Below, piece by piece: positions 17,763 to 62,506 of a stretch of 64,000 nt of DNA. The stretch comes from a virus (lineage: Duplodnaviria; Heunggongvirae; Uroviricota; Caudoviricetes). The stretch lies in the IMG/VR virus record IMGVR_UViG_3300042870_001966. One strand, given 5' to 3'. The position numbers were made by a program, and so were the translations under genes. The notes beneath the pieces were generated by a model, which had not been told where the DNA came from, searched no databases, and worked only from the letters and a program-made list of their open reading frames with translations. How positions within the stretch are numbered: the stretch's first letter is position 1; each line of letters starts with the position of its first letter.

Positions 17763-18563
17763 ATGAATCCAAATCACGATATAATGAAGGATCCTACTGG
17801 GTCGGATCGCCTAACTACTAAGTATTTAGGAGAAGTCGTTGATGTGACTGATCCTCTAAGAGAAGGTCGCTGTAAAGTTAAAGTATTTAGCCTATTTGAT
17901 ACGTTGCCAGTTGAAGATATTCCATGGGCAGTTCAATCTCAAAAGCCCGCATTTTTCGGGCAGGACGCAAAGGCTGGATCAATATCAATTCCTAAAAAGG
18001 GAGCGATTGTTAATGTGAGATTTAATAATGGTGACTTATATTCGCCAGAGTACGAACAGGTTCAGGAAATAGGCGACGATATTAAGGAAGAGCTTAAGAA
18101 GAGTACAGAATACGAGTACGAAGGAGCTCACTATATCCTATTTGATGGAGATGAGCAGATAAAATTCTGGTTTAATAAAGGTCGAGGGTTAACTCTTGAA
18201 ATGAAAGACTCTTACCTAAATATTGATCAAAATTCAAAAATTGAATTGTATCACAAAGACGGCCTTTCCTCAGTTGAATTAGATGGAAACGTAATCACAG
18301 TAATGAGCCAGTCTCAAGTTAACGTTATTTCCAATTCAATTAAAACAAGCGCACAAACAGTTCACGTAGATGGAAAGACTACCCGATTGGGTTCGTCAAA
18401 TGTTGTTGAAAGTGCAGTGATGGGTGATTCAATGTTTGCAGCTCTTATGGGATTAGCTGCAATGGTTGATGCTAAAATGCCTTCTACTGGAGCGGCAGCT
18501 CAATCTCTAATTAATAACATGAAAGATCAGATCCTATCTGAAACCGTATCAATTGGGCGTTAA
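17763..18563 (+). CDS. baseplate spike, gp5/VgrG-like OB-fold + beta-helix
   Basis: YLGEVVDVTDPLREGRCKVKV...DIPWA...IPKKGAIVNVRF; no lysozyme domain evident. Confidence 0.75.
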   Translation: MNPNHDIMKDPTGSDRLTTKYLGEVVDVTDPLREGRCKVKVFSLFDTLPVEDIPWAVQSQKPAFFGQDAKAGSISIPKKGAIVNVRFNNGDLYSPEYEQVQEIGDDIKEELKKSTEYEYEGAHYILFDGDEQIKFWFNKGRGLTLEMKDSYLNIDQNSKIELYHKDGLSSVELDGNVITVMSQSQVNVISNSIKTSAQTVHVDGKTTRLGSSNVVESAVMGDSMFAALMGLAAMVDAKMPSTGAAAQSLINNMKDQILSETVSIGR

Positions 18564-19385
18564 TCCAAATTGATCTTCACATTTAACTAATTCAAGCTCA
18601 GTATTTAAGTGACTAATTGCATCTCCGAAATGGATTGCATTATAGGTAAGTTTACCGGTGCTCTTAGCACGGTCAATATCTTCTGATAAAGTAGGTAACT
18701 GTTGTCTATTTCTAAAATATCGACTTGACGCTTGGTATTTTCCAAGCAAGTCTTCTCTGACCATTTCCATGTGATGCATCGTTATAACTCCTGGGTCAAA
18801 TACTCGCGATCTTTCGTATGAGTCATCCGCTATTCCGCGAGTAGGGTCTATATCAGAAAACATGAATTGCACTGAATGATGCCTACTGGCCGATCCTATC
18901 TTGTAGATAAATGGGACCTTAAACTTGGAGTACCCTTGGTGTAGAGTTGGCGTTACGTAATTTATGTACTTAACCGCAGTCGCATGTAAATTATTATCAA
19001 TGATTTGTCGCTTAGCTTCGTCAAATTCGTCTTTAACATAGAATTCATCCGCGTCCATTGAAAGATAATGGGTTGCTCCTAATTCAAGAGATTTTTCCAA
19101 TAGGCTTTGACGTTTATTGCACTCATAAACCTTAGCTCTCAGCACATCTTCAGCAGTGGTTAGGGATGATGGTACAAAGTCTGTGAATACTATTATGGCG
19201 TCAATTAATCCTTTCTTCTTGAGTCTCTCTAACATTGGAACTAGGTTAGGAGAACACTCAGTGTTTCCCCAAGAAACAGTTTGATATGACACGAGAACAA
19301 GGTCAACTGATTCTCGGATTGAGCGTATTGATTGCTCTAGTGTCTCTAGTCCGTCAAAGACAACGTATCCTGCTGATAATTTCAT
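18549..19385 (-). CDS. GT-A fold glycosyltransferase (GT2-like)
   Basis: ETLEQSIRSI...HYLSMDADEFY DxD motif. Confidence 0.7.
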   Translation of the reverse strand: MKLSAGYVVFDGLETLEQSIRSIRESVDLVLVSYQTVSWGNTECSPNLVPMLERLKKKGLIDAIIVFTDFVPSSLTTAEDVLRAKVYECNKRQSLLEKSLELGATHYLSMDADEFYVKDEFDEAKRQIIDNNLHATAVKYINYVTPTLHQGYSKFKVPFIYKIGSASRHHSVQFMFSDIDPTRGIADDSYERSRVFDPGVITMHHMEMVREDLLGKYQASSRYFRNRQQLPTLSEDIDRAKSTGKLTYNAIHFGDAISHLNTELELVKCEDQFGLTPN

Positions 19386-19387
19386 AA

Positions 19388-20026
19388 TTAAAGTTTTTCA
19401 AAATATCCGCCTACTTCAAAAGACGAATTCATGTTAATTGAGCCTGCTTTAGTTGGAATAAATTTAGCTGGATCAACTAATCTAAAGTCAACTGATACTC
19501 GAGTAGAGTCAGAGGTGTTTGTTTTATTTCCATGAAGTAGATTAGCTCCATTAAATACTAAAATTTCTCCGTATTTTACAGTATACGGCATGAAATCTTC
19601 CTTTCCTTCAGAACTTTCCATCCAAATAGTATTGGTCTCGTTAGTATCAGTAAATGGCATCCAAAAGTTAACTTCAGAAGTTCCGTGATTGTATGCTCGG
19701 TCCCTGTGCCATTCGCCGACTGCTAAATTATTAACGAGTTGGGTTCTAAACGTTGGGATTTTTTGATAAATGATTGATTCATACTCGAATGAGTTCGCTA
19801 ATTCTTTAACTAATTCAACGTACGTTGGGTAAAACAACTCACTGAATTTTGAGTAATAAGCTTTGTGCCAATCAGTAGATTGATCCATTTCTCTAGAAAA
19901 GAAAAGGTAGTCTTTTAATTTGTGCAGTTCAGATAGATTATCAACTTCTAGAATTGACTCGACGATTTCCTTAAATGGAAATTTTTGTGTGTCATACTGA
20001 ACTTTGTAAGGTACTGGTAAATACAT
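19388..20026 (-). CDS. Fe(II)/2-oxoglutarate dioxygenase (StrG/PhyH-like)
   Basis: WHRD...LHGN...RVSVDFR facial triad and 2OG-binding Arg. Confidence 0.7.
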   Translation of the reverse strand: MYLPVPYKVQYDTQKFPFKEIVESILEVDNLSELHKLKDYLFFSREMDQSTDWHKAYYSKFSELFYPTYVELVKELANSFEYESIIYQKIPTFRTQLVNNLAVGEWHRDRAYNHGTSEVNFWMPFTDTNETNTIWMESSEGKEDFMPYTVKYGEILVFNGANLLHGNKTNTSDSTRVSVDFRLVDPAKFIPTKAGSINMNSSFEVGGYFEKL

Positions 20027-20028
20027 TA

Positions 20029-20778
20029 TTATTTTGTAGTTTTTTTATTAGTTATTAAGTTTAGAGCCGACTTGTCTACACCGTCATTTCTATTCGCCCA
20101 AAAGAAATCGTCAGTTGATCTAGGTTCAACATTGAGAGTTATGCGGCCTCGATTGATCTTCCAGTTGAATTCTTCCCATGATTTACAAAAATAATGGTTG
20201 ATTTGTGCAATACTAGTTGTATTTATTTGACTCGCATGACCTGTTACTAATTCACCAGTTAACTCGAATATTTCACCGTCGACTGTCAAATCAGGCATGT
20301 GAGGATTTGTATACCTAACTACTTTTTTACAGTCGATGATTGTTTTGAAATGGTCAGAGCAATCGTCTTGGCATTTAATGAATCTCTCCAAGACTGGTCG
20401 ATCTGAGTAACGAATATGACCGTTTGACCCAAAGAATCGCCAATGGATTACTACACCAGCTGAAGTTAAGTAGGTTTGAATGAATTCGTTAATTGATAAA
20501 TCATTATGAATTACTAAAAACTCATCAATATCGAGTGCCATTGCATAGTCAAAGTCGCTAGCAAAATTTTCTAGAAAATTATTATATGCTGGAATTTGCA
20601 TCCCTTTTCCAGGAAAATAGATGATCTTAACTGAGTCTGAGGCAAAGTCTCGTAGTTTGTTATTTGCTGAATTATCGTAAATGACAAAGTCAGTAACTCC
20701 TAATCTCTTGTGGTAGTCTAGCCATTCAGCTAAATACCTCTCCTCGTCTAATGCTATTGCAAAAATGGCAAGTTTCAT
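20029..20778 (-). CDS. glycosyltransferase (GT2/GT92-like)
   Basis: DEERYLAEWLDYH, LDIDEFL, INHYFCKSWEEF. Confidence 0.75.
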   Translation of the reverse strand: MKLAIFAIALDEERYLAEWLDYHKRLGVTDFVIYDNSANNKLRDFASDSVKIIYFPGKGMQIPAYNNFLENFASDFDYAMALDIDEFLVIHNDLSINEFIQTYLTSAGVVIHWRFFGSNGHIRYSDRPVLERFIKCQDDCSDHFKTIIDCKKVVRYTNPHMPDLTVDGEIFELTGELVTGHASQINTTSIAQINHYFCKSWEEFNWKINRGRITLNVEPRSTDDFFWANRNDGVDKSALNLITNKKTTK

Positions 20779-20781
20779 TTA

Positions 20782-23346
20782 TTATCGTATATTTTTGTTA
20801 GGTGATTTCGGAGTCTTACCGATTCTAGAAATATGAGTTAGCATTTGATTAACTTGAGCTGATCCCAATTTAGAAATGAGGATCGGCTTCCAATAGTCAA
20901 TTAGTTTATTATATGGGCCAGTTTCCTGATTTGGAACTAGTGCTAAGCATTTAATTAACGGAAATCCTATTTTTAGTAGAGTATAAAAATGATCAGAATA
21001 GACATAGTCTCCTCCTATTTTTGAATGAAATATTCTTGACATTATATCGCTAGTTATGCCTGAATAATTTCCGGAAAGTAGCGAAAGGACCTCAGTTGTT
21101 AATTGAGTATCATTCGATCTAATGTACTCATCTAGACTGACTGTGCTTATGTAACAACCGGTCCTATAACCATTCTTAATTAACATCTCAGATAAACCTA
21201 GCTCATACTTGTCAACTATTTCTGATTTATTATGAGAAACTGTTATACTGTTCATAAACTGAGAGAACGGTTTTGCCGTAAATACTGCTCGGTTAACTGA
21301 GAAAAAATTACTTTGTAAATAGCACTTGCCCTCTATTAGTTTTGGGTCGGGCGCATGATCACATAGTGCCCATGCATCAACGGATGCACCAGTCATAGTG
21401 TCAAAGACTGGAGTTAGATCGCCCACACAATAACCTGAATCATTAACAAAAAGAAATTGATCAATTTTAGAAATGTCAGACTTGTACTTTTCAATTATTA
21501 AATTGAAACCTCTCTTGTAACTACCTAAATCGTTTGATTCACCGTGCCTTCCACATATACTATCAGATATTAAATGAGAGATTTTTTCCAGCTCAGAAGG
21601 ATTTACGTTACCGTCAGACACAAATATTATTTTGTCACAAAATTTACTAAGTTTAGTTAAATAGTCAACTACATAATCGTCGATCTGGTTAAGGACATCA
21701 TAATGAGCAAATACTGCAATTCGATTGTGCATATTAAAACCAAGTCGACTCATCGCTGATTTAATAACAGCTTTATTACTTTTGTTAAATTCACGAACCT
21801 GATTATCAGCTAGTGCCAATTTTAGAAGCCGATCTGCTTCAGTAACACTGGAATATCTTAAAATCGGTAAATCGTGGTAATTATCATCAACTGAAACTTC
21901 GGAAACGACTTTACACCCGTAGCTTAAGGCTTCATATACTCTAACTACTTCAAGATTTCCATTATCGTAGTAGTGGTGATTTAGTACAACTTTAGTTCTC
22001 TTGAGAATATCTACGATATCTGATCCAAACTTATGTACGCTAAATCCGTCTACTACTTTGATGGACCTAAGCTCTCTCATACTATCTAGAAATTCAGTTC
22101 TTCGACTGCTGCCTGAGTATTCTCCATAAAACAGGACATCTATATCTCTAGCTTGGTTAACTATATCAACATCATGTTCAACTCGACCGATTGGTACAAA
22201 TATATGAGGTCTTCCAAATTTTCCTTTGAAATAATTGATATTGTATTCTGAATAATCCCATATTTCAATCGCACAATTTAGCCTGTGTATGTAATCTTTA
22301 GTGAACCAGCTTGAATGGGCTTGTTCAAATTGGTAGGCTATGTAATTCTTTGGGAAATCCGTGAATACATTTGGGCACATGACGATATGCAAGTTAGGGT
22401 CATTTGGGTTTAGAGCACTACCTGGAGATTTAATTGAAGACTTTACAATAAACCCTAATTCGGTTAGGGTCTTTTCTAAATTCTTAGCGTGATTAGCTAC
22501 CTGTTTTGTGTAGATCAGATTGATCTGTACCGTATTGGTGAGTTTGTCTGAATACTTTTTAAAGTTTTCGTAAGATATTGGAACTGCTGCATTATTTTGA
22601 GTAGCAGTAACTAGTGACTGATCTAGGTATTGGTATTTTTTCTTGATAAAGGCAAGTAGCTGCTTTTTCTTTTTGGCAACATGATTATCTCTAATTCCGG
22701 AAATTTCCTTGAAATGTGAAGTCCTACTTAAATTTAAAAAATCAAAGCCGAGTATCTTATCTTCCTTTAATTCAACTTCATCACTAGGTCTGGTAAAGAT
22801 AAAAAGATCAGACCGTATCGACTTTTCAGAAAAGGCTAGTGAGTTCGTTATAAAGAAATTAAAGGCCTGGATTATTGATATGTTAGTATAATCCTGGTTT
22901 ATTAGAATTTGATTAGCAAGCCGACTAATCTCAGAAGAAGGCTTAAATTTAAAAAAGCTCGTAGATATTAATGAGTTCTGGGAAAAGAAAAATTGATTGG
23001 AATTATTGGTTAAGTCTATATCCTTTATTAAAAACACATGGGGGTCGAATACAGTAATATCCGATGCTTCTGAATAAGAAAGTGCTGTTAATATGAAAGG
23101 GTTAACTATAGTTGGGTTAGAATTACTTGAAAATTTCTTCTTCAACGAGATAGATTGCTCGTTTGGGGAGATCTTAATCACTTGAATAATTTCGCATAAT
23201 GCCGATATTATGGTTTTAGGCAAAGGTATATCGGAGCAAATGACTAGGCTGTCGTATTTTCCTGAATAGTAGAGGAATGTTTCCACATTTTTTAAGAAAA
23301 TATCGGAGACTGCATTTGAGTAATAGGTAAAAGCAATGGGCTTCAC
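20782..23346 (-). CDS. multidomain glycosyltransferase with C-terminal RgpF (rhamnan synthesis F)-like domain
   Basis: GTG start; central DIDVLFYG...KVVLNHHY...VRVYEALSYG (GT-B/CgeB-like); C-terminal IAVFAHYD...DLGSYKRG...VNDSGY...LQSNF...YELGLS (RgpF-like). Confidence 0.7.
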   Translation of the reverse strand: MKPIAFTYYSNAVSDIFLKNVETFLYYSGKYDSLVICSDIPLPKTIISALCEIIQVIKISPNEQSISLKKKFSSNSNPTIVNPFILTALSYSEASDITVFDPHVFLIKDIDLTNNSNQFFFSQNSLISTSFFKFKPSSEISRLANQILINQDYTNISIIQAFNFFITNSLAFSEKSIRSDLFIFTRPSDEVELKEDKILGFDFLNLSRTSHFKEISGIRDNHVAKKKKQLLAFIKKKYQYLDQSLVTATQNNAAVPISYENFKKYSDKLTNTVQINLIYTKQVANHAKNLEKTLTELGFIVKSSIKSPGSALNPNDPNLHIVMCPNVFTDFPKNYIAYQFEQAHSSWFTKDYIHRLNCAIEIWDYSEYNINYFKGKFGRPHIFVPIGRVEHDVDIVNQARDIDVLFYGEYSGSSRRTEFLDSMRELRSIKVVDGFSVHKFGSDIVDILKRTKVVLNHHYYDNGNLEVVRVYEALSYGCKVVSEVSVDDNYHDLPILRYSSVTEADRLLKLALADNQVREFNKSNKAVIKSAMSRLGFNMHNRIAVFAHYDVLNQIDDYVVDYLTKLSKFCDKIIFVSDGNVNPSELEKISHLISDSICGRHGESNDLGSYKRGFNLIIEKYKSDISKIDQFLFVNDSGYCVGDLTPVFDTMTGASVDAWALCDHAPDPKLIEGKCYLQSNFFSVNRAVFTAKPFSQFMNSITVSHNKSEIVDKYELGLSEMLIKNGYRTGCYISTVSLDEYIRSNDTQLTTEVLSLLSGNYSGITSDIMSRIFHSKIGGDYVYSDHFYTLLKIGFPLIKCLALVPNQETGPYNKLIDYWKPILISKLGSAQVNQMLTHISRIGKTPKSPNKNIR

Positions 23347-23438: not shown

Positions 23439-24344
23439 TTGAAAAATTATTATAAAATTCTCGAAGTTCCCGAAACAGCGGACTCTGCTGAAATAAAGAA
23501 AGCTTACAGAAAGCTTGCTTCTAAATACCACCCTGACAAAAATGGTGGAAGTAAAGAATTTGAAGAAAAATTCAAAGAAGTAGCTGAGGCGTATGAACAT
23601 ATTGGATCAGAAGATAAGAAACGAGTATACGATTCTGCCCGGGCACCTAAAAATTCTTCATTTAATTCGGAATTCTTTGGGTCGTTTCATGATTTCTCTT
23701 TCTCTGGAGCAAGAACTCAAGACTTTAGGCACTTAACGGTTACTGTTGACAAATGGGCAACCATCAAAGAATTAATGGACGGTTCGGTATTTGATATTGG
23801 ATACCCGATATCAAAAAAGTCAAAAGACGGTGCATTAAAGTTCGAAGACAAGCAAATTAGAGCAGAAGTTAATTTAGCAATTAACCCTTATCCAATTTCT
23901 TTTGAAAACGGTAAATATTTTTTAGTCCTAAAAGTCAGAGGAGGAGGGTCCAGTCAGGAAACTGAGGAAGTCGATTACTTTAACAGAAAGCGGGCAGGCA
24001 ATGTGGTTGGCGATTTAATTATTCGCATAAATGTTGATATGCTGGGCCTTGAACTTGAAGATAGTGATCTAGTTCAAGAGATTGAGATCAGCCTATATGA
24101 TATTTTGTTTAATGAAGAAGTCATTTTAGAGAGCCCATTGGGTAAAAAGTACAGAATAAAATCATTTAACCGGGATTCACTTAGTGACTTAGTAGTTAAG
24201 ATACCCAACCAAGGACTCGTATCCGCATTTGGTAAAAGAGGAAGCCATCTCTTTAAAATAATTGTGAACCGTCCGGACTTTTCGAAATTAAGTGAAGAAA
24301 AGTTAAAGGAATTCAAAGACTTACTGATTAGCATTAATAAATAA
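23439..24344 (+). CDS. dnaJ: DnaJ-class co-chaperone (J domain + C-terminal domain, no Zn finger)
   Basis: KNYYKILEV...[13 protein letters not shown] (HPD motif); GDLIIRI C-terminal pattern; no CxxCxGxG repeats. Confidence 0.85.
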
Positions 24345-31248: not shown

Positions 31249-31634
31249 ATTGTTTCAACTCCAGTTAATTCTCCAATTTCAAGATCCCCATCTATTAATT
31301 GAGGGATAAACTCTACTGACTGATACGCAGTATTTAGGAATTTTATAGCATTATTTACGCTACTTGCACTAAGTCCAGAATTAACGTAAATGATTCTATT
31401 GTATTTACGGTTTCTAACGTTAATTGCTTTATCGATTAATTTCTTAATCTCATAATTAATTAGGAACGATTGGATCTTATTTGGCACAAGAATTTCCTGT
31501 TCAAATTTCTCCTTGATTATTTTATTTACGTTTAGTAAATAATCGCATTTCTGCTTCTTACTAAAGGTTTGAATAAATTGTTTTTGGTCTTTTACGAAAA
31601 CGATTTCAAGTCTTCTGTCATCTGTATCAATCAT
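31233..31634 (-). CDS. hypothetical protein
   Basis: 133 aa ORF coupled to dCMP deaminase. Confidence 0.55.
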   Translation of the reverse strand: MIDTDDRRLEIVFVKDQKQFIQTFSKKQKCDYLLNVNKIIKEKFEQEILVPNKIQSFLINYEIKKLIDKAINVRNRKYNRIIYVNSGLSASSVNNAIKFLNTAYQSVEFIPQLIDGDLEIGELTGVETIKKGL

Positions 31635-32125
31635 ATTGAATCTAGGCTGATTTTTTTAACGTCTACCCCGGCTCTTCTTAAAAAATCAAGTCCAGCAATA
31701 TCTCGATATTCCTCTAGATAAACAACTTTTTTTATTCCAGCTTGAAGTATTAATTTACTGCAATCTGTACATGGGGAGTAAGTTATGTATAAGGTCGATC
31801 CATCGCAACTTTGAGTAGATTTAGCAACTTTAGCTAAAGCATTAGACTCTGCGTGTAGAACGTACCATTTTGTTTTGTATTCTCTAAATGAACCGTCTTC
31901 GTTCATTACGGCCTCTTCGCATTCATTTTCAAATCCAGAAGGAGTACCATTGAATCCATCTGCAATAATCGTGTTATTCTTAACAATTAATGCTCCAACT
32001 TTTTTACGAGTTGCATGAGATAATTCTGCCCAAACTTGGGCCATTTTGATGTAGGCGACATCAACCTTATGTTGCCTCTGTACGGATAGTGAGTTAGTAG
32101 TTGACATTTCCTTGAGATTTTTCAA
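31631..32125 (-). CDS. dCMP deaminase
   Basis: KVGALIV, GFNGTPSG, HAESNA, PCTDC zinc motifs; real start may be ATG 32107. Confidence 0.9.
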   Translation of the reverse strand: MKNLKEMSTTNSLSVQRQHKVDVAYIKMAQVWAELSHATRKKVGALIVKNNTIIADGFNGTPSGFENECEEAVMNEDGSFREYKTKWYVLHAESNALAKVAKSTQSCDGSTLYITYSPCTDCSKLILQAGIKKVVYLEEYRDIAGLDFLRRAGVDVKKISLDSI

Positions 32126-32984
32126 ATATCCATTTCAAAAGGTCTTCGCCATTTTGAAAAATTAGGACATCGTCTGTATGTTTATTAATAGAATCAAATA
32201 GTATTTCAAAATCTTTACTAGGAGTTCCGTCTATTTCGATTAAATCAGATACGATAGCTGGTAAAGTTACTGGTGAAAATTCATTTTGTAACATGTAGCC
32301 AGCTAGATCGTAGTGTCTATCGTAAACATGATATGAATTAGCGACATGAGTATACGATCCTAATTCCAATTCTGGATAGAATTGCTTAAGATGAGAATGG
32401 ATTTGCATTTGTAGAGAACAGAAGAAAGCAACATCAGTTGGTGTACCCCATACTGCATCGTTACTTCTCATGAAAACACTCATGTAAAGTTTATTATTTC
32501 GAATATGAAGATTTGCGTACATAGTACAAACAAAATCTTTATTTGAAAAATGCTGGTGAACTGGTTTATTGAAGTGCAGAACTGCTTGGCGAGTGTTCGA
32601 ATCGTTCATTAGGCTTTGAATTGCCCATTGATACTGAGTCAAATCATGAGAGTTTGTCTCTTTAAAGATTAGATTACCGTAAGCAGAGTTTGCGGTGCCG
32701 TCTGTGTTCTGAATTGTTTCCCAGAATTTAGCCCATTTTGAAATAAACGCTACATCATTACGACCCATGTAATACCATAGGAATTCAGCTGCAATGTATT
32801 TCATTTGCGAACTTCTAGCCTGATTTAGGTATAGGCATTGAGTTGGATCTTCGACTTCGAGTGCAACATCTAGTAATTCTTTACTGGTAGTTCCTCTAGC
32901 GTTATTCACAAGACCGTTAGCCATTAAATACTTAATGGAGTCTTCATAGCATGAAGCGAAAGTCTTTCCTTTAAATGTAATCAT
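32094..32984 (-). CDS. thymidylate synthase-fold enzyme, dCMP hydroxymethylase (gp42)-like
   Basis: NSAYG, DSNTRQA, KDFVCT (catalytic Cys), MRSNDAVWGTPTD, SYHVY; Asp at the position of E. coli ThyA Asn177. Confidence 0.75.
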   Translation of the reverse strand: MITFKGKTFASCYEDSIKYLMANGLVNNARGTTSKELLDVALEVEDPTQCLYLNQARSSQMKYIAAEFLWYYMGRNDVAFISKWAKFWETIQNTDGTANSAYGNLIFKETNSHDLTQYQWAIQSLMNDSNTRQAVLHFNKPVHQHFSNKDFVCTMYANLHIRNNKLYMSVFMRSNDAVWGTPTDVAFFCSLQMQIHSHLKQFYPELELGSYTHVANSYHVYDRHYDLAGYMLQNEFSPVTLPAIVSDLIEIDGTPSKDFEILFDSINKHTDDVLIFQNGEDLLKWIFEKSQGNVNY

Positions 32985-33037: not shown

Positions 33038-34699
33038 CTATACAATAGCTAAATCTGAAAAATGGTCAGTATTTTCAACCTGGATCTTAGTATCGAAGTA
33101 TTCTTCAGGTAATGGATCATGCGAGATAACAAACACGGTCATATTATACTTCTTTGAGAAAGTTTTTAAGAGGTCAACTACTCTAAAAATAGAGTCTACG
33201 TCAAGAGAAGAAAATACTTCGTCTAAGAATAACACGTTTACTTTATTATGTTTAAGTTTAATAAGTTCAAGTATACAAAGCAGAACGATTAAGTTCATTT
33301 TCTTTTGTTCTCCAGCAGATAATGAGTCTGGTGAAACTTGCATTCCTAAATGAGTAATGATCGGATTGAACTCTAGGTCAAACTCGAACGAAAACTTAAA
33401 TTCTAATACTTTAGCGGTTTTTAGGATCTTCTTATTTAATAGTGGAATAATTTGACTCATTAGCATACGTTTCATTCCGTTATCCGATAAGATCATTTCC
33501 ATTTCTTGCGAAACTTTTAACTTTTCTTGCTCAACTTTTAAGGTCTTACTAGAATCATCAATTTCAGACTGTATGTTTTTAATTACTTCAGCTAAATGAT
33601 GATCAGTTGTTTTAACTGTTTGCGTTTTTAATCCAGAGAGTTCTCTCTTAAGAGATGTAATATTTGCATCGATTGAATAGTAATCGGCCTTTGCTGTATT
33701 TTGAGACTCCTCAATCTTTTTAAGACCTGTCGCCTGACTTGCAAGCGATTCAGTAATCGATGGAATTAGGGACTCTTGTTGAATCTTCTTTGCCTGTAAC
33801 TTATCTTTAATTTGGCTGTGTAATTCGTCAGTTAAGTCAGATAAACAGTGAGGGCATTTATTTTTTGCATAGATATCTAGCTTCTTTTGGATTTCTGAGA
33901 TATTTAAACGAGTAGAAGACTGGCTATCTTGACTAGTTCGGATTGAGGTTCGGATTTCCTCTATTTTAGTATTAAAAGAAGCTGCTTCAGTTCTCTTAGC
34001 CTGTTTGTCTATTTCTAATTGAGATATTTGAGCAGTAATTTCAGAAATTCGAGTCTCATTTGAAGTTTCAATTTCAACTTTTAGATTTTCAAGCTGAAGA
34101 AGAGACGACTCAAGAAGTCTCTGATTACTTGAAATAGCCGTTTCATGGGCAGAAACATCCCCTTTAATTTTCTTGGATTCTTCTTTCACGATTTTAGACA
34201 TGTCATTAACTATATCTAGTCCAAAGATCTTATCGATAATTTGACGTTTATCTGCTGGACTTAATTTAACGAAGCTCTTAAAATCATTTACTGATAGACT
34301 GATTGTATTTGAGAATACGTTAAATGGGATTCTGGCTAATTCATCTTCTATGAACTCATCAACTCTGCGTTTATCCGGTAAGTTATATTCAGCGCCGTCT
34401 ACTGATACTTTTGAAAAGTTTGGTTCAAGCCCACGTTCAATATCAATTAATTTACCACCATCGGTTAAGAATTTAATTTGAGTATAGGCATTCTTGTTAA
34501 TACGATTAGGAATCTCCTTGGTTTTTCGGATTGCCGATTTTCCATAGATAGAAACAGTTAAGGCATCAGAAATTGAAGATTTACCTGAGCCGTTTTTACC
34601 TTGAACTAGAACAAGTCGAGGCTCGTCAGTAAATTTAAACGTCTGTAATTTATTTCCGTATGAACAAATGTTTCGGAATGAGAATTCTTGTATCTTCAT
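33038..34699 (-). CDS. recombination ATPase gp46 (SbcC/Rad50-like)
   Basis: GKNGSGKS, CPHC zinc hook, LSAGEQKK, FLDEVFSSLD, VISH. Confidence 0.92.
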   Translation of the reverse strand: MKIQEFSFRNICSYGNKLQTFKFTDEPRLVLVQGKNGSGKSSISDALTVSIYGKSAIRKTKEIPNRINKNAYTQIKFLTDGGKLIDIERGLEPNFSKVSVDGAEYNLPDKRRVDEFIEDELARIPFNVFSNTISLSVNDFKSFVKLSPADKRQIIDKIFGLDIVNDMSKIVKEESKKIKGDVSAHETAISSNQRLLESSLLQLENLKVEIETSNETRISEITAQISQLEIDKQAKRTEAASFNTKIEEIRTSIRTSQDSQSSTRLNISEIQKKLDIYAKNKCPHCLSDLTDELHSQIKDKLQAKKIQQESLIPSITESLASQATGLKKIEESQNTAKADYYSIDANITSLKRELSGLKTQTVKTTDHHLAEVIKNIQSEIDDSSKTLKVEQEKLKVSQEMEMILSDNGMKRMLMSQIIPLLNKKILKTAKVLEFKFSFEFDLEFNPIITHLGMQVSPDSLSAGEQKKMNLIVLLCILELIKLKHNKVNVLFLDEVFSSLDVDSIFRVVDLLKTFSKKYNMTVFVISHDPLPEEYFDTKIQVENTDHFSDLAIV

Positions 34700-35190
34700 T
34701 AGTTTGAAAAGTATGTAAGTTCTTGGTTGGGCATAATGTCTTGTACTGCATAGAATTTATACAGTTTTGAGGTAGAGTCATAGGACCAGTTTATATTGGG
34801 AGAATCTGAGCGTCTATAAACTGAGCCGTATCCTAATAGGATTGCATGCGAATTAATATTCATCATTTTATCTGGATTAACAACATCTAATAAAATTGCT
34901 TTGAATTGAGCTTGAGAAATTAAGCCTTGATCAAGCCTTTCCTGTAGGTCAAGCTCAGCAAGTCGGCTCGCAATCTCTCTCTCCTTTTCGATTCCATCAG
35001 GGTTAGGGAATAGTTTATTGGTTAAGAATTGATCATTTTTACTTAAAAGAATTTGGGTCCTTTGTGTAACCGGCAACCAGGCACAAACTTCAATAACTGA
35101 GTCTCTAAAAATCTGACGATTAGTAAAAACGCAAAACTCAGATCCTATTTTTTGGATTGATATTGATTCTAAAATATTTGGTCTATTCAT
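34699..35190 (-). CDS. SET-domain protein with altered NHS motif
   Basis: LGYGSVYRRSDSPN...FYAVQDIMPNQELTY matches SET GxGxxxNHSxxPN...AxxDIxxGEELT. Confidence 0.65.
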   Translation of the reverse strand: MNRPNILESISIQKIGSEFCVFTNRQIFRDSVIEVCAWLPVTQRTQILLSKNDQFLTNKLFPNPDGIEKEREIASRLAELDLQERLDQGLISQAQFKAILLDVVNPDKMMNINSHAILLGYGSVYRRSDSPNINWSYDSTSKLYKFYAVQDIMPNQELTYFSN

Positions 35191-40078: not shown

Positions 40079-40106
40079 CTTTTACAAGGGATACTAAAAT
40101 GGGTTT
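40079..40106 (-). promoter_or_regulatory. AAAC-N17-GTAAAAG promoter (class A)
   Basis: Motif match upstream of uvsX. Confidence 0.65.
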
Positions 40107-40662
40107 AGTTAAAGTATGAAATTAATAAAAATGATCCAGAAAGGACCGTTGTGTCTGAGTAGTCTCCATTTACTACTTGGTGAAATCCGACTTTCACTAT
40201 ATTAGAATTATCTTTAGTGAAGTGGTCCTTTGATAGGTTTCGAGTAAAAGAAATGTCGTTCTTTGAAGTTAGGTTAACTCCGTAACAGTGCATCTTTAGC
40301 GACATTGGAGAATTCATTGAAATATCTCCCAAGTAAAAAATACTGTCTTCAGTAAGTCCAACCTCATCGATATTTAAACCAGCTTCCTCAATTAAAGCTC
40401 GACATACTGAGTCGTATGGAGTTTTATCTAGATCTGGGTTAACTGTGTCAATTACTAATGAATTACCGGTTTGGCCATTTACCATATTCGGAGACTCGAG
40501 TAAAAATATTGACTTAATTGACTTAGTATCTGGGCTTAATTCAAATGGAATAATGCAGATATAATCTAGATCATCTGATAAGTAATCGGCTGAATGTTGG
40601 TCCTTTTTTAAAGTTAACACCTTAAATTTTCCGATTTGGGTTCTAGTTTCGTTATTAGTCAT
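40105..40662 (-). CDS. Nudix-fold protein, degenerate Nudix box
   Basis: DSVCRALIEEAGL resembles AxRElxEExG but lacks upstream Gx5E. Confidence 0.5.
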   Translation of the reverse strand: MTNNETRTQIGKFKVLTLKKDQHSADYLSDDLDYICIIPFELSPDTKSIKSIFLLESPNMVNGQTGNSLVIDTVNPDLDKTPYDSVCRALIEEAGLNIDEVGLTEDSIFYLGDISMNSPMSLKMHCYGVNLTSKNDISFTRNLSKDHFTKDNSNIVKVGFHQVVNGDYSDTTVLSGSFLLISYFN

Positions 40663-41335
40663 TTGCGGCTACTCCTTTTTGTTTAGGTGATGCGCTTAAA
40701 GTCTTCTTCATAGTTTTCTTAATCGCATCAACGGTTATGCTGTTATTTATATAGTTTGACAGTTTAGTCAAAAACTCCTCTTTGTTCTTGGAATTAGTGT
40801 ACATCATTTTCAATAGACTCTTACTTGGAAGTTTAATCCTAACTGCTAAGTTTAGGTCAGTATCCTCCAATGAAAACATTCCAAATAGATCGCTTGGATC
40901 TACTTGAACTTGTTGACGAAGAGCTGTTTGATTAACTGGTTCAGCAGGTCTAGCTACTGGTGCAATCTCTTTTACCGTATTAGCAAATTCAGCAGGAATT
41001 TCGGGAGCAACTTGAATATCTTCAGTTAAGGAAGGTATGTAGTTAATTGACTGGATTTCAGCCATTGATAATCTAGGCTGGTCGTCAGTGATCATCATTA
41101 AGTCTGATGAAACTGCATCTGTGTCCATTTGACTTCCATCAGATAGGACTGCTAGAAATCGACCGTTTCGTCCAGGCAGTACGTCCCTAACGGTTACAAT
41201 AGTACCAGCTTTTCGTGGATCATTTGTTTTAATCCATTGAAACTCATTTGATTGAAAGCTACTCTTAATAGCCATCATCGTTTCGATATCGTAATTCATA
41301 ATTATGTTTTTTATTTTTTTAAGCCACTTTATCAC
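40655..41335 (-). CDS. hypothetical protein
   Basis: 226 aa; real start may be ATG 41299 (MNYDIET). Confidence 0.6.
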   Translation of the reverse strand: MIKWLKKIKNIIMNYDIETMMAIKSSFQSNEFQWIKTNDPRKAGTIVTVRDVLPGRNGRFLAVLSDGSQMDTDAVSSDLMMITDDQPRLSMAEIQSINYIPSLTEDIQVAPEIPAEFANTVKEIAPVARPAEPVNQTALRQQVQVDPSDLFGMFSLEDTDLNLAVRIKLPSKSLLKMMYTNSKNKEEFLTKLSNYINNSITVDAIKKTMKKTLSASPKQKGVAAND

Positions 41336-42701
41336 TGGACAATTGTTCTTCTAATTTTTTCATTTCGTCCTTAGTATCAACACGACCATTGTATAGTCTT
41401 GTTAAAATAGTTCGAGCAGCTGAATCGTATTTCTTAGTAAATAACGTGTCGTTCTTGGTTAAGACCTGATCAATCGTAGGTTCTTGACCAGCTTTAATTT
41501 TTCCACCGTATGAATCTGGTGAAATATTAAATTGGATTTGGATATTGGGATACATTGAGGCAAAGTCAAAACATGAAACGTATTTGTAATATCCAGGTTC
41601 AGGCTTAGCGACGTATGCTCCATCGTAAGTTGCATCTTCTTCTAATTCTCTTCGGTCGTTTGCCATATACAAACCTCTTTCTAAGAATTCACGACACATT
41701 AGAGTTTCAGTAATGAATACTGCAGAGAATACTTTTGATACATCGACCTTTGCAAACTTGGAGATAGCGAAGGCTACATCAAGCAATCCAAGCTTATCTT
41801 CAATTAGTTTAACTAGAATTGTATCGATAATGTTATACTTTGTAAAGTTCTCAACGTCTTGCTGAGCTTCCATCATTGTTGCATATTCACTATGTAATTT
41901 AGTTGTTCCTAATACTAAATTTGCAATGTAATCTAACTTGTAATTCTCAACTACTTTGTAAGGTTTAGTATTCATAAACACTTCCATGTAATCCAGAAGT
42001 CCTAAGTGAACTGGCATTTTGGCCTTGCCGATTAGGGTTTTAGAAGGCATGTTTAACATTGGTTCAATTCCTAAATTCTTACAACGATTAATTAAATACA
42101 ACCAGTCAAATCCAATTACGTTCCAGCCTGTTAAGAAAGGAATCTTTGGAAGAACTTTGTGAAAGAAAGTTTTCATTAAGTCTTCTTCATGTTCAAAGAA
42201 TAGGTGCTTAACTACGAACGTTTGCTCATGCGCTTTAAAATAATCATTTACTTCGTCTTCTAGTCGAGTAACTACATCAGGTGCAAGATCTCGCATAGTT
42301 GACATTACGAAACATACGTTATCTTCATTTACGAAAGTAATCATATTAACCGGCATTGCGGCTTTAGCTGGATCTGGGAAATCTTGAGAAATAAGCTGAA
42401 TCTCAATATCCAGATAGTATTTCTTTGGGCTATCATCTGAATAAATTGAAGCGAGCTCAGTTTCGGCTAACCTAGTTTGAGTTAACTCTTCAAGCCTAAA
42501 TCGACTTAACCATTTTCCTTGAACCTTCTTTAGGAATCTTCCATCCCAATTTCTATGTTCAGTTGGAGTTGGCGTTAGATTCCAGTTGTACAGGTCATGC
42601 GGAAGTATTGGTTTCTTCATGAATCCGATATTTCCATCTGGTTTATAATATGAGATTAGAAGAGCTGAGTCTTCTGTGTGAAATTCTGTACTTACAATCA
42701 T
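41319..42701 (-). CDS. family B DNA polymerase, N-terminal half only (gp43A-like)
   Basis: Exo motifs LDIE, GWNVIGFDW, YNIID; palm motif A FDFASMYPNI; ends in first fingers helix; no KxxxNSxYG or YxDTDS. Confidence 0.85.
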   Translation of the reverse strand: MIVSTEFHTEDSALLISYYKPDGNIGFMKKPILPHDLYNWNLTPTPTEHRNWDGRFLKKVQGKWLSRFRLEELTQTRLAETELASIYSDDSPKKYYLDIEIQLISQDFPDPAKAAMPVNMITFVNEDNVCFVMSTMRDLAPDVVTRLEDEVNDYFKAHEQTFVVKHLFFEHEEDLMKTFFHKVLPKIPFLTGWNVIGFDWLYLINRCKNLGIEPMLNMPSKTLIGKAKMPVHLGLLDYMEVFMNTKPYKVVENYKLDYIANLVLGTTKLHSEYATMMEAQQDVENFTKYNIIDTILVKLIEDKLGLLDVAFAISKFAKVDVSKVFSAVFITETLMCREFLERGLYMANDRRELEEDATYDGAYVAKPEPGYYKYVSCFDFASMYPNIQIQFNISPDSYGGKIKAGQEPTIDQVLTKNDTLFTKKYDSAARTILTRLYNGRVDTKDEMKKLEEQLSSDKVA

Positions 42702-42719: not shown

Positions 42720-43199
42720 TTAATAACCTCTCTGTTGGCGAGCCTTGTTCTCCTCATTCTTAGACATGTACATATTGAACATTTCCTGAGAAGTCATTCC
42801 TACTGATACTGCATAGTTCATAAAGAAGTGTAGCATATCAATTATTTCAAATTTGCACTCAAGCTGATCAGACTCTGATAAATCTGAGAACTTTTTATCT
42901 GAGTAGCCTTCATGTGCGGATTTCCAACGCTTCCAAATAGCATTACCTGAACCGTCATTGATTCCACCTAATGCATCGGTTGCTTCGTGGATCTCATCTA
43001 TCATTGCATGGTTATTCATGTGCCAAAAGGTCATAAGCTCCCTAAGATTCATGTTGGCAAAGTCATACCCGTAAACATTCTTTTGTGTATCAGCCTGAAT
43101 GTCCATGATTTGGCCTAATGTGTCTTCGTTCACTTCTGTTCTGTCTGACCAGTGATCTTTAATTTCTAATTTTGCACACGAGTTGTCTGTATTTGCCAT
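42720..43199 (-). CDS. dimeric dCTPase/dUTPase, T4 gp56-like
   Basis: AIWKRWK...DQLECKFEIIDMLHFFMN...KNEENKARQQRGY. Confidence 0.85.
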   Translation of the reverse strand: MANTDNSCAKLEIKDHWSDRTEVNEDTLGQIMDIQADTQKNVYGYDFANMNLRELMTFWHMNNHAMIDEIHEATDALGGINDGSGNAIWKRWKSAHEGYSDKKFSDLSESDQLECKFEIIDMLHFFMNYAVSVGMTSQEMFNMYMSKNEENKARQQRGY

Positions 43200-46501: not shown

Positions 46502-47089
46502 TTAGTCACGACCGGTCATGATCTCTTCCATAACTCTAACTGTATCAGTTGAATCGTTATGTAAGATACCCGTTCCGCCGTGCTCAATCCATTTCTCCAA
46601 TTTCTTTTTAAAATCGTCGATTAGAATGTCTTTTTCGCTAGTTGCGTACTTCCATTTGTCTTGATCTAGAACAAGCCTAGTATCAGGAGTCATATCCGCT
46701 GGGTCAGTTACTGGCTCTTGGTCAATTCCTAAATTTGAATTTACCCAACGAGTCTTACCAATAAGACACTCAGGACTACGGCTTGGTGCAGATAATAAAA
46801 TTGGGTCATATCTTTGTAAGTAATCCCATAATTCTCTGCCGTCTTTGGTCCATTGTAGGTTAGCCCAGAAGTCTGCTCCTAACTTATCCAGTAATGGCCA
46901 AATTGAGTTCTTTCCGTTTTTCTTTTCGTATTCCTTAGGTGAAAGATTTTCAGTGTTTTCTTCAATATCTTGAAAGCCTCTATCAAAATCGACAAGGACT
47001 CCATCTAAATCACAGAACACTCGATATTTACCCTCTTTACCTTCGTTTACGAATTGTTTAAATTTCTTAAGCATTTTCTTTAAGTTCAA
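46502..47089 (-). CDS. HAD 5'(3')-deoxyribonucleotidase-like protein with capsid-targeting-like N-terminus
   Basis: VFCDLDGVLVDFD, ILLSAP, GKTRWV, ILIDD; likely start ATG 47074 (MLKKFKQFVNE). Confidence 0.75.
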   Translation of the reverse strand: MNLKKMLKKFKQFVNEGKEGKYRVFCDLDGVLVDFDRGFQDIEENTENLSPKEYEKKNGKNSIWPLLDKLGADFWANLQWTKDGRELWDYLQRYDPILLSAPSRSPECLIGKTRWVNSNLGIDQEPVTDPADMTPDTRLVLDQDKWKYATSEKDILIDDFKKKLEKWIEHGGTGILHNDSTDTVRVMEEIMTGRD

Positions 47090-47399
47090 ATTGTGTAGTC
47101 TCGTCTTTGTTTATAATGGCGACAAGATCGTTTGCCATAATGATGTGGTAGTTAGTACCGTCCCACTGGACGTCAAGTCCTGAGTATCGTTGATATAAAA
47201 CTCGATCGCCTTCTTTGATTGGGCAACCTGAATTACTGGAAACCAGATGGCCTACTGCAATTACTACTCCGGTATTGGGTCTTTTTCTAGCATCAACTGA
47301 TAAAATGATGCCTGTTTCAGTTTTAGACTCTACTGAGTCCGGTAAAACTAATATTCTTTCGAATAGAGGAATAAATCCTCCTTTGATTGGTGTACTCAT
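47067..47399 (-). CDS. groES: co-chaperonin GroES
   Basis: PLFERILV, KTETGIIL mobile loop, GVVIAVG, EGDRVLY, IMANDLVA. Confidence 0.9.
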   Translation of the reverse strand: MSTPIKGGFIPLFERILVLPDSVESKTETGIILSVDARKRPNTGVVIAVGHLVSSNSGCPIKEGDRVLYQRYSGLDVQWDGTNYHIIMANDLVAIINKDETTQFELKENA

Positions 47400-51617: not shown

Positions 51618-54047
51618 TTATGATCCGCAAGCTTCGCATGCATCTGGGTTATCAAGAGAACATACTATATCTTCCGCACTTGTATTAAGCGCTTCAAATA
51701 CTGGTGCAATTTGGACAGTTGGAGCAACTTTTCCAGTAGCCATATTTACTCCTAGTCCAGCAATTGCCGAACTCGCAGCTTCAGTTCTAAGATAATACAT
51801 TCCTGTCTTTAATCCGCTTTTCCAAGAATGGAAGTGAGCTGATGTTAATTTTGCAGTATTTACGTCTCTAAAGAATAAATTCAGAGATTGTGATTGACAA
51901 ATAAATTTACCACGATCAGCTGACATGTCGATGATGGTCTTTTGAGAAATTTCCCAAACTGTTTTATAAACAGCTCTTAATTCCTCTGGAATCTCAACGA
52001 TATTTTGAACAGAACCTTTTTCCAAGATTACTCGATTTCTCATAGAATCTCCCCAAAGTCCTAGTTCAGCTAGATCTCTAACTAGATGTTTATTAACTAC
52101 AATAAATTCTCCAGCTAAAGTTCGACGAGTTCCTATATTCGAAGTGAATGCCTCGAATGCTTCATTGTTACCCATGATTTGGGCAGTAGAGGCAGTTGGC
52201 ATTGGCGCAAGCAATAGAGAATTTCGGGATCCATGCTTCATAAGTTTTCTACGAAGAGCTACCCAATTCCAACGACCTGATAATTGGTCATCCGTTACTC
52301 CCCATAAGTTAAACTGAAATTGTCCTGAGCTTAATGGAGAACCTTCGTATGAGGCGTATGCCCCATCCTTCTTTGCAAGATCAATTGATGCTTCCATTGC
52401 AGCGAAGTAGATTGTTTCAAATATCTCAGAGTTTAATTTCTTTGAGGCTTCTCCGCCAAATTCAATTCCCATTATTGCAAAAGTATCAGCTAAACCTTGA
52501 ATACCTATTCCAATTGGGCGGTGTTTCTCGTTAGATGCTTTAGTTTCTGCAGTAGGGTAGAAGTTTACGTCAATTACTTTATTTAGATTTAGTGTTGTTT
52601 GATATGCTACATCATATAGAGCCTCATAGTCGTACTCACAATTAGGTTTTCTTAGTTTACCTGTACGCTTTCCGATTGTAATAAATTGATTTACTGGAAT
52701 AGACGCTAAGTTACAAACAGCCTGTTCTTCTTTTGAGGTGTACTCTATAATTTCAGTACATAAGTTAGAAGATTTGATTGTTCCTAAATTCTTTTGATTT
52801 GATTTACGATTAGCTGAATCTTTGAAAAGAATATATGGCGTGCCTGTCTCAACTTGTGATTCAAGGATTTTTTGCCATAGGGTTCTAGCCTTCATAGTAT
52901 GACGACCTTTTCCTTCAGCTTCAAGTCTTTCGTAATTACTCTCGAATTCCTCTCCGTACATTTCCCAAAGCTCGCAGTCAATTTCAGCTGGACAGAATAG
53001 TGTCCAATCGCCATCCTCTTCAACTCTCTTCATGAAAAGATCTGGTGTCCACATAGCTAAGAAAAGATCTCGAGCTCTACGCTCTTCTTTACCGTGGTTT
53101 TTACGTAAATCCAAGAAATCTTCAATATCTGCATGCCATGGCTCCAAGTAAATAGCAAAAGAGCCTTTACGTTTTCCTCCGCCTTGATCTACATAACGAG
53201 CAGTCTCATTGTAAACCTTTAGCATTGGAATAATTCCATTTGACGTACCGTTTGTTCCTTTGATATAAGAACCAGTAGCTCTAATATTTGAAACCGATAA
53301 GCCGATGCCTCCAGCATTTTGTGAAATTGCAGCTACATCAGATAGAGTTTTGTAAATTCCTGAAATTGAATCTTCATGCATAGTTAATAAGAAGCATGAA
53401 GATAATTGTGGACGTTTGGTTCCAGCGTTAAACAGGGTTGGAGTGGCATGAGTCATTTTGTGAGTTGACAGAAGCTCATACGTTTTTAATACGTTTTGAA
53501 TGTCTGTTCCCCAAATACCTACAGCTACCCTCATGTATAAATGTTGAGGAGTTTCAGCCGGCTGGCCGTATGTCTTTAATAAGTAACTACGCTCTAATGT
53601 CTTAAATCCAAAGTAGTCAAAGTTAAGATCGCGATCATGAATGATTGCTTCGTTTAGCGTATTCTTATTCTTCTGTACAGCAGCATAGGTTTCATCAGAG
53701 ATAATGCCTGCCACCTTTCCAGTCTTTGGATCTATGTAATTATATAGGTGGTCAATTGTATCACTAAATGACTTGTGGGTCGTTTTGTGCAATCGGGTAA
53801 TTGCAATTCTTGCAGCTAAGATTGAGTAGTCTGGGTGAATATGAGCTAGAGCAGCAGCAGTTTCAGCCGCGAGTAGATCAAGTTGCTGTGTGTTAATTCC
53901 ATCGTATATTCCAGATACTACTTTAGTGGCTACTTCAAGTGAGTCAACGTAGTCTGTATCCAATCCGTATGTTTGCTTTTTAATACGGTTTGTTATTTTA
54001 TCGAGCTTTAGCGTTTCGCTATGCCCATCTCTTTTTATTACCTTCAT
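51618..54047 (-). CDS. nrdA: class Ia ribonucleotide reductase alpha subunit with ATP cone
   Basis: VIKRDG ATP cone, TPTLFNAG, SSCFL, SNLCTEI, CNLAS, APMPTAST, GMYYLRT, CEACGS. Confidence 0.96.
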   Translation of the reverse strand: MKVIKRDGHSETLKLDKITNRIKKQTYGLDTDYVDSLEVATKVVSGIYDGINTQQLDLLAAETAAALAHIHPDYSILAARIAITRLHKTTHKSFSDTIDHLYNYIDPKTGKVAGIISDETYAAVQKNKNTLNEAIIHDRDLNFDYFGFKTLERSYLLKTYGQPAETPQHLYMRVAVGIWGTDIQNVLKTYELLSTHKMTHATPTLFNAGTKRPQLSSCFLLTMHEDSISGIYKTLSDVAAISQNAGGIGLSVSNIRATGSYIKGTNGTSNGIIPMLKVYNETARYVDQGGGKRKGSFAIYLEPWHADIEDFLDLRKNHGKEERRARDLFLAMWTPDLFMKRVEEDGDWTLFCPAEIDCELWEMYGEEFESNYERLEAEGKGRHTMKARTLWQKILESQVETGTPYILFKDSANRKSNQKNLGTIKSSNLCTEIIEYTSKEEQAVCNLASIPVNQFITIGKRTGKLRKPNCEYDYEALYDVAYQTTLNLNKVIDVNFYPTAETKASNEKHRPIGIGIQGLADTFAIMGIEFGGEASKKLNSEIFETIYFAAMEASIDLAKKDGAYASYEGSPLSSGQFQFNLWGVTDDQLSGRWNWVALRRKLMKHGSRNSLLLAPMPTASTAQIMGNNEAFEAFTSNIGTRRTLAGEFIVVNKHLVRDLAELGLWGDSMRNRVILEKGSVQNIVEIPEELRAVYKTVWEISQKTIIDMSADRGKFICQSQSLNLFFRDVNTAKLTSAHFHSWKSGLKTGMYYLRTEAASSAIAGLGVNMATGKVAPTVQIAPVFEALNTSAEDIVCSLDNPDACEACGS

Positions 54048-54061
54048 GTAGTTTCGTATTT

Positions 54062-60922: not shown

Positions 60923-62506
<1,584 letters not shown>

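Follow-up and report, generated by a model that had tools for sequence, protein, structure and literature searches.

Does the enzyme of thymidylate synthase (ThyA) fold encoded at positions 32094-32984 (minus strand) of a 64,000-nucleotide stretch of Caudoviricetes DNA (the window; IMG/VR virus record IMGVR_UViG_3300042870_001966) make thymidylate, or does it modify cytosine, and if so into which base? A first-pass annotation, made from the letters alone, had seen Asp where E. coli ThyA has Asn177 and a residue pattern recalling T4 gp42, and had proposed that the phage replaces cytosine with 5-hydroxymethylcytosine (hm5C) or 5-methylcytosine (5mC), possibly with a new sugar hypermodification. 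Here we report that the 296-residue, stop-free product (P0001) has the fold, the diagnostic residues and the phylogenetic position of T4 gp42 and that its gene belongs to a T4-like set of pyrimidine genes kept across relatives. From its sequence, P0001 is probably a T4 gp42-type, folate-dependent hydroxymethylase of deoxycytidine monophosphate (dCMP), and the phage DNA would then contain hm5C. No new mechanism is involved: the residue rules are published, and metaviromes are already known to be rich in thymidylate synthase homologues with Asp177 beside deaminases. The window is part of a 270,962-bp (271-kb) virus record with direct terminal repeats, and the genome is therefore complete; positions below are those of the window unless marked as genome positions.

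The residue rules, given here in E. coli ThyA numbering, come from earlier work. At position 177, Asn selects uracil and Asp selects cytosine (PMC8670742), and mutagenesis at this position switches the substrate (PMC8670742, PMC5175136); among the sites that tell modified from unmodified metavirome contigs, position 147 ranks second (PMC8670742). Positions 143 and 177 serve as product and substrate markers, respectively, with position 143 holding a hydrophobic residue in ThyA, which forms a methyl group, and an acidic one in hydroxymethylases, among them T4 gp42 and MilA, the cytidine monophosphate (CMP) 5-hydroxymethylase of Streptomyces rimofaciens; the flavin-dependent 5-hydroxy-dCMP synthases of RB69 and DLP3, a recent discovery, have Asn at position 169, where Asp is otherwise found (PMC13326640). 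Ser167 and Arg126 pair with deoxyribose, as against Ala and Lys with ribose in MilA (PMC5175136).

We took reference genes from annotated records and read the diagnostic positions in one alignment. As a 5mC reference we used PaMx74 thyA, a homologue of the XP12 5-methyl-dCMP synthase, because XP12 itself was not among the relatives of the AXL3 enzyme through which we sought it. At positions 143, 146, 147, 166, 167, 169 and 177, in that order, E. coli ThyA and a second ThyA encoded by the phage itself both read L, C, H, R, S, D, N; the deoxyuridine monophosphate (dUMP) hydroxymethylase SPO1 gp29 reads D, C, N, R, S, D, N; PaMx74 thyA reads N, C, P, R, S, D, D; the 5-hydroxy-dCMP synthase RB69 gp48 reads E, C, T, R, S, N, D; and T4 gp42, the dCMP hydroxymethylase, reads D, C, T, R, S, D, D. 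P0001 is identical to T4 gp42 at every one of these positions and also keeps Arg126. In the protein's own numbering these residues are Asp150 (143), Cys153 (146), Ser174 (167), Asp176 (169), Asp184 (177) and Arg132 (126), and around position 143 P0001 reads DFVC, compared with DFMC in T4 and LAPC in E. coli.

P0001 contains the motifs KDFVCT and MRSNDAVWGTPTD; in multiple alignments with E. coli ThyA (YQRSCDVFLGLPFN) the Cys of the former falls on Cys146 and, as originally claimed, the last Asp of the latter on Asn177, and HMMER places the same Asp on the specificity Asp of both MilA and T4 gp42. Asp177 is present in all 120 close homologues (56-92% identity) and in 142 of the 149 best cluster representatives drawn from 1.8 billion proteins, and is therefore a conserved feature, not a chance substitution. 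Among the same 120 homologues, Cys146, Asp169 and the deoxyribose-type pair Ser167 and Arg126 are likewise invariant and Asp143 is found in 119, and Asp169 occurs in 145 of the 149 representatives, the remaining four being gaps. The catalytic core (Cys146, Glu58, Tyr94, Arg166, His207 and Tyr209) is complete in P0001, and in the homologues these residues vary little or not at all. We also considered P0001 as a canonical ThyA (EC 2.1.1.45) and rejected this assignment: Asn177, Leu143 and His147 would be expected, Asp, Asp and Thr are seen, and the other paralogue in the genome has all three expected residues.

The best sequence relatives of P0001 among solved structures are hydroxymethylases, not thymidylate synthases. 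It passes the superfamily threshold of Pfam Thymidylat_synt (PF00303) with 77.7 bits against a cut-off of 24.3, and the four PHROG families that match it are all labelled thymidylate synthase. When searched against the PDB, the sequence finds MilA (9e-18) and T4 gp42 (1e-13) first and ThyA enzymes only from 1e-10, and a profile built from 79 homologues scores 179 bits with MilA, 159 bits with the T4 dCMP hydroxymethylase and at most 100 bits with thymidylate synthases. An AlphaFold2 model of P0001 (predicted local distance difference score 96.8, predicted template modelling score 0.94) matches MilA, ThyA and the T4 enzyme with a Foldseek probability of 1.00; its top match is MilA, aligned over the whole length (TM-score 0.79, 309 columns), whereas ThyA and the T4 enzyme cover the core only. 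The modelled protein thus combines a MilA-like C-terminal extension with pocket residues of the deoxyribose type. Three recent PDB chains of 234-238 residues named 'thymidylate synthase' (9iqu, 9iqc and 9ir2), which may be the structures of phage 5-hydroxy-dCMP synthases mentioned in PMC13326640, score 90 bits with the family profile, well under MilA and the T4 enzyme.

The same grouping emerges from phylogeny. In an IQ-TREE analysis of 48 rows, rooted on two canonical ThyA proteins, T4 gp42 and the family of P0001 form a clade of 35 rows with 96/96 support, and PaMx74, RB69 gp48 and SPO1 gp29 fall outside it; PaMx74 branches first, and the tree does not resolve RB69 gp48, SPO1 gp29 and the AXL3 enzyme, which lie near its base. 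A quicker tree of 85 rows agrees. By the approximately unbiased (AU) test, a clade joining P0001 to PaMx74 is rejected (p 0.003), as is one joining it to SPO1 gp29 (p 0.008). With SPO1 gp29, P0001 shares the ThyA fold, Asp143 and Gln127, but the SPO1 enzyme has the uracil-specific Asn177 and has Asn147.

P0001 thus shares with T4 gp42 (EC 2.1.2.8; PDB 1B5D, 1B5E and 6A9A) its fold, its clade and a run of residues comprising Asp143, Cys146, Thr147, Arg166, Ser167, Asp169, Asp177, Arg126, Glu58, Tyr94, His207 and Tyr209. The two proteins are nevertheless only 27% identical over 219 residues, and P0001 is 50 residues longer and has the MilA-like C-terminal extension.

The genes that accompany P0001 also have T4 counterparts: a pyrophosphatase of the gp56 family, a dCMP deaminase and a separate canonical ThyA, corresponding to gp56, Cd and Td of the T4 hm5C system. 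The canonical ThyA, found when the genome was searched for a second enzyme of this kind, is a 388-residue protein at genome positions 229865-231031 (plus strand; 314 bits) that keeps all catalytic residues, including Asn177, Leu143 and His147; a family search of the complete genome gave no ThyX. T4 likewise has td in addition to gene 42. The phage's canonical ThyA is about 120 residues longer than that of E. coli, owing to insertions, and a 2-oxoglutarate (2OG)-Fe(II) oxygenase gene (genome 228756-229469, plus strand) lies just upstream of it, with one small open reading frame (ORF) in between.

The dCMP deaminase (31631-32125, minus strand; Pfam dCMP_cyt_deam_1 2.6e-22, phrog_174 1e-49) directly adjoins the P0001 gene, its longest frame overlapping the 3′ end of that gene by 32 nt. 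Its closest PDB entry is 4p9c, filed as a deoxycytidylate deaminase (1.3e-40), followed at 1.2e-22 by T4 Cd, with which it is 35% identical by tblastn. The first-pass annotation had cautioned that such a deaminase fits an ordinary pathway to deoxythymidine monophosphate (dTMP). The literature turns this caution around: in 70% of cytosine-modified metavirome contigs, as against 6.1% of unmodified ones, a thymidylate synthase homologue has a dCMP deaminase no more than 3 kb away (bioRxiv 10.1101/2024.12.05.627091).

The gp56-family nucleoside triphosphate (NTP) pyrophosphohydrolase, a predicted dCTPase/dUTPase, is encoded at 42720-43199 (minus strand; phrog_173 3.9e-17) and is 39% identical to residues 78-171 of T4 gp56, the C-terminal 94 (E 7e-25). 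Homologues occur in 1423 phage records, mainly from phages of enterobacteria, Acinetobacter and Aeromonas; in a sample of 30 of these records, nearly all are genomes of T4 size (~160-180 kb), many of them annotated with dCTPase/dUTPase. Precursor supply is further represented by the large and small subunits of a class I ribonucleotide reductase (51618-55024, minus strand; Ribonuc_red_lgC 7.5e-205, Ribonuc_red_sm 1.3e-110). The first-pass annotation had correctly listed the gp56-like gene, the deaminase and a glycosyltransferase/dioxygenase cassette in the window, but its 'dNMP-type kinase' (2976-3584) did not hold up, since searches of Pfam, PHROG and the PDB gave no relative of this P-loop protein, and it does not resemble T4 gp1. 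A candidate nucleoside monophosphate (NMP) kinase lies elsewhere, in a guanylate-kinase-like protein of 159 residues beside the DNA ligase gene (genome 220765-221244; PF00625 2.8e-19, phrog_1815 2e-37), which the phage has instead of a gp1 homologue.

This gene set is conserved across relatives. IMG/VR holds 271 stretches that encode relatives. The order PolB(N)-gp56-like-...-UvsX-gp41-gp47-SET-gp46-hydroxymethylase-deaminase is retained across the 24 related loci of sufficient length, 5 of which lack one or two of the genes or have them replaced. Each of the two relatives with a completeness of 93% or more has a canonical ThyA (279-289 bits) as well as the divergent paralogue and a gp56-like gene; the canonical ThyA is found in three of the five large relatives searched, these two included, and the gp56-family gene accompanies the enzyme in the same two, the most complete, and in a third that is 67% complete.

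If P0001 acts as its residues suggest, Cys153 would attack C6 of dCMP, Asp184 (ThyA 177) would select cytosine, and the methylene group of 5,10-methylene-tetrahydrofolate would be moved to C5. Asp150 (ThyA 143) would then let water hydrate the exocyclic methylene, giving 5-hydroxymethyl-dCMP and no methyl product. The gp56-family pyrophosphatase would take deoxycytidine triphosphate (dCTP), and deoxyuridine triphosphate, back to the monophosphate, the dCMP deaminase and the separate canonical ThyA would supply dTMP, and an NMP kinase, possibly the phage's guanylate-kinase-like protein or a host enzyme, would lift 5-hydroxymethyl-dCMP towards the triphosphate. In the resulting phage DNA, hm5C may replace some or all of the cytosine and protect against host nucleases.

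Several observations weigh against this reading. First, T4 gp42 is the sole characterised member within the clade, where it sits on a long branch, and a clade of P0001 with RB69 gp48 is not quite rejected by the AU test (p 0.054), although the RB69 branch is very long and D169N separates the two. Second, P0001 has Gln at the position of Arg127, unlike T4 gp42, and the position-143 rule (PMC13326640) is a correlation over few characterised enzymes. Third, family searches of the complete genome gave no trimeric dUTPase and no dihydrofolate reductase; the gp56-like protein, which may also simply be the phage's dUTPase, is the only candidate for that function, so its presence does not prove that dCTP is excluded. 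Fourth, the T4 proteins gp1, beta-glucosyltransferase, Alc, DenA, Frd, PseT and Dam had no significant tblastn match in the genome, and homologues of the gp1 dNMP kinase, the alpha- and beta-glucosyltransferases, Alc and DenA are all absent from it, so that the downstream part of the T4 logic is incomplete. Finally, of seven Asp177 enzymes linked to deaminases that were assayed in earlier work, five made 5-methyl-dCMP (bioRxiv 10.1101/2024.12.05.627091).

This last result bears on the main alternative, which we consider unlikely: that P0001 is a dCMP methyltransferase (5-methyl-dCMP synthase) like those of Xanthomonas phage XP12 and Pseudomonas phage PaMx74, that the genome carries 5mC, and that the deaminase turns part of the 5-methyl-dC pool into thymidine nucleotides, as the deaminases linked to the tested enzymes did (bioRxiv 10.1101/2024.12.05.627091). 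Asp177 alone fits this scheme too, and the PaMx74 enzyme shares with P0001 both this residue and the ThyA fold, its gene adjoining a dCMP deaminase and an NTP pyrophosphohydrolase in a cluster that the pyrophosphatase, thymidylate synthase homologue and deaminase of our phage resemble. The resemblance does not extend to the rest of the signature, in which PaMx74 has Asn143 and Pro147 where P0001 and T4 gp42 have Asp143 and Thr147, or to the tree, in which PaMx74 lies outside their clade. Nor does it extend to the thymidylate supply: 5mC phages need no separate ThyA under the model of the preprint (bioRxiv 10.1101/2024.12.05.627091), and the full canonical ThyA retained here would be superfluous under an XP12-type bypass. 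The deaminase, too, is nearest to PDB entries filed as dCMP deaminases. A cytosine-modified genome remains the best reading, and because of the residue signature and the tree hm5C is favoured over 5mC, as it is over 5-hydroxycytosine.

Similarly improbable is the absence of any bulk replacement of cytosine, with P0001 a redundant or specialised pyrimidine enzyme that acts on dUMP, works at low flux or makes a minor fraction of modified bases. Such a role would be in keeping with the missing homologues of gp1, DNA glycosyltransferases, Alc and host-DNA nucleases. It would also be in keeping with the routine assembly of this DNA from ordinary shotgun metagenomes (20 lake runs), which indicates that it is not refractory to standard library preparation, but the hm5C-containing DNA of T4 is equally sequenceable. 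Against this alternative stand the invariance across the family of Asp177, at a position where mutagenesis switches substrate (PMC8670742, PMC5175136), the canonical ThyA, which is already there for dUMP, and the recurrence of the gp56-family gene in the three relatives described above.

Somewhat less probable still is a modification on the thymine side, in which 5-hydroxymethyl-dCMP is made and then converted by the coupled deaminase to 5-hydroxymethyl-dUMP, leaving 5-hydroxymethyluracil or a derivative in the DNA, or modifications on both pyrimidines. The overlap of the enzyme and deaminase genes would suit such coupling, and phage deaminases of the same family turned 5-hydroxymethyl-deoxycytidine into 5-hydroxymethyl-deoxyuridine in vivo (bioRxiv 10.1101/2024.12.05.627091). 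Yet the deaminase of this phage resembles an ordinary dCMP deaminase, and the intact canonical ThyA, conserved here and in the three of five large relatives, argues that thymine is made and used. No other marker of thymidine hypermodification turned up, though no systematic search for such markers was made, and the matches to T4 gp43 represent only a split family-B polymerase.

We regard as very unlikely a flavin-dependent 5-hydroxy-dCMP synthase of the RB69 gp48/DLP3 gp80 type (PMC13326640) feeding ether-linked glycosylation of cytosine. These enzymes share with P0001 the ThyA fold, Asp177, an acidic residue at 143 and Thr147, the AU test leaves the RB69 grouping just short of rejection, and the genome has a glycosyltransferase island. 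They differ in using flavin and O2 and in the diagnostic D169N (PMC13326640), which is absent from the P0001 family, where Asp169 is invariant in the homologues and representatives counted above, and RB69 gp48 lies outside the supported clade. Least credible of all is a ribonucleotide (CMP) hydroxymethylase like MilA (PDB 5JNH, 5B6D and 5JP9) or BcmA, whose product would be a modified base or nucleoside in free form and no DNA precursor: MilA is the top sequence and fold match over the whole length, C-terminal extension included, and also has Asp at 143 and 177 (PMC13326640), but it belongs to bacterial antibiotic biosynthesis and not to phage DNA synthesis, its ribose residues Ala176 and Lys133 (ThyA 167 and 126) are Ser and Arg in P0001, as in T4 gp42 and ThyA, the A176S/K133R double change cost MilA its CMP activity and largely spared that on dCMP (PMC5175136), and the P0001 gene lies among phage genes for replication and deoxynucleotide metabolism.

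If hm5C is made, is it decorated further, as the first-pass annotation suggested? The four-gene glycosyltransferase/dioxygenase cassette (18549-23346, minus strand) lies between dnaJ and the baseplate spike gene and encodes a 278-residue protein without a family, a weak PhyH-like 2OG dioxygenase, a GT2/GT92-like protein and an 854-residue protein with RgpF-like and weak GT-B-like parts. In an Atlas look-up, the N-terminal 430 residues of the last gave only sub-threshold GT8-like leads. At nine related loci that keep the enzyme, the DnaJ and spike genes are directly adjacent and the cassette is missing, and a partial homologue of the 854-residue protein, covering its N-terminal part only, occurs in just 5 of 15 larger relatives; in some relatives the island is remodelled. 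The cassette is thus a variable island and no fixed partner of the enzyme, and for this reason the proposed sugar hypermodification is unsupported. Nor did family searches of the complete genome find PF11440, PF09198, Tet_JBP, a carbamoyltransferase or a C5 DNA methylase, or any T4-type DNA glucosyltransferase. A preprint describes glycosyltransferases of the GT-A fold that act on phage DNA, and it is conceivable, although doubtful, that the island decorates hm5C, the 854-residue protein perhaps combining a GT8-like N terminus with GT-B-like and RgpF-like parts, to produce a new DNA glycan. In that event, the gain, loss and remodelling of the island among relatives would mirror the diversification of glucosyltransferases in the T-even phages.

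Hydroxymethylcytosine is a well-known anti-restriction strategy. We found no report of it in this phage group, and in the literature covered a search for this base in phages of Bacteroidota or Flavobacterium turned up nothing relevant; a review of jumbo phages mentions enzymes of the thymidylate synthase superfamily for hm5C in general terms (PMC7824862). Were our assignment correct, cytosine would be exchanged for hm5C in a lineage of freshwater jumbo phages that is both large and recurrent, extending the T4 strategy. This would bear on the range of host restriction and CRISPR systems able to attack these phages and on the behaviour of their DNA in methods that rely on conversion or on enzymes. 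The label 'thymidylate synthase' would then probably be wrong for hundreds of database entries.

The phage itself is uncultured and comes from fresh water. A search of sequencing runs found the stretch fully contained in 20 lake-water or freshwater metagenomes dated 2016-2024, with no RNA run among those listed. With 14 kb of the window as the query, megablast gave no near relative among 50,697 phage records, and the phage record closest to the enzyme is an unannotated 462-kb uncultured phage (44% identity). The T4 late-promoter word TATAAATA occurs 7 times against 7.7 expected and is not enriched, so it provides no argument on timing. Between uvsX and polB, the genes at 40105-41335 have no Pfam or PHROG match, and an Atlas look-up of 40655-41335 gave no usable one.

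Some further features of the genome are recorded here. The SET-domain-like gene of the conserved order (34699-35190, minus strand; Pfam SET 5.8e-06) lies between gp47-like and gp46-like genes of the Mre11/Rad50 type and is kept in most relatives; two loci have an unrelated ORF of ~181-186 residues instead, and two are without it. The family-B DNA polymerase is apparently split into two distant genes: residues 49-496 of T4 gp43 match the window ORF at 41319-42701 (minus strand), the N-terminal gene, which is conserved in all related loci, and residues 525-753 match genome positions 72978-73685 (minus strand), ~43 kb off and ~1.8-2.5 kb before the start of the window. Among the replication genes lies a HAD-family protein (46502-47089, minus strand; phrog_2643, "5'-3' deoxyribonucleotidase", 2e-23) that could affect dNMP pools. 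A cluster of DNA-repair and nucleotide genes at genome positions 218314-228405 comprises a NUDIX hydrolase, an ATP-dependent DNA ligase, the guanylate-kinase-like kinase, a DUF3127 protein, an RNase T-like exonuclease, a UvdE UV endonuclease and an Fpg/Nei DNA glycosylase. Finally, the phage encodes its own homologues of the chaperones DnaJ (23439-24344, plus strand), GroES (47067-47399, minus strand) and GroEL (60923-62506, minus strand).

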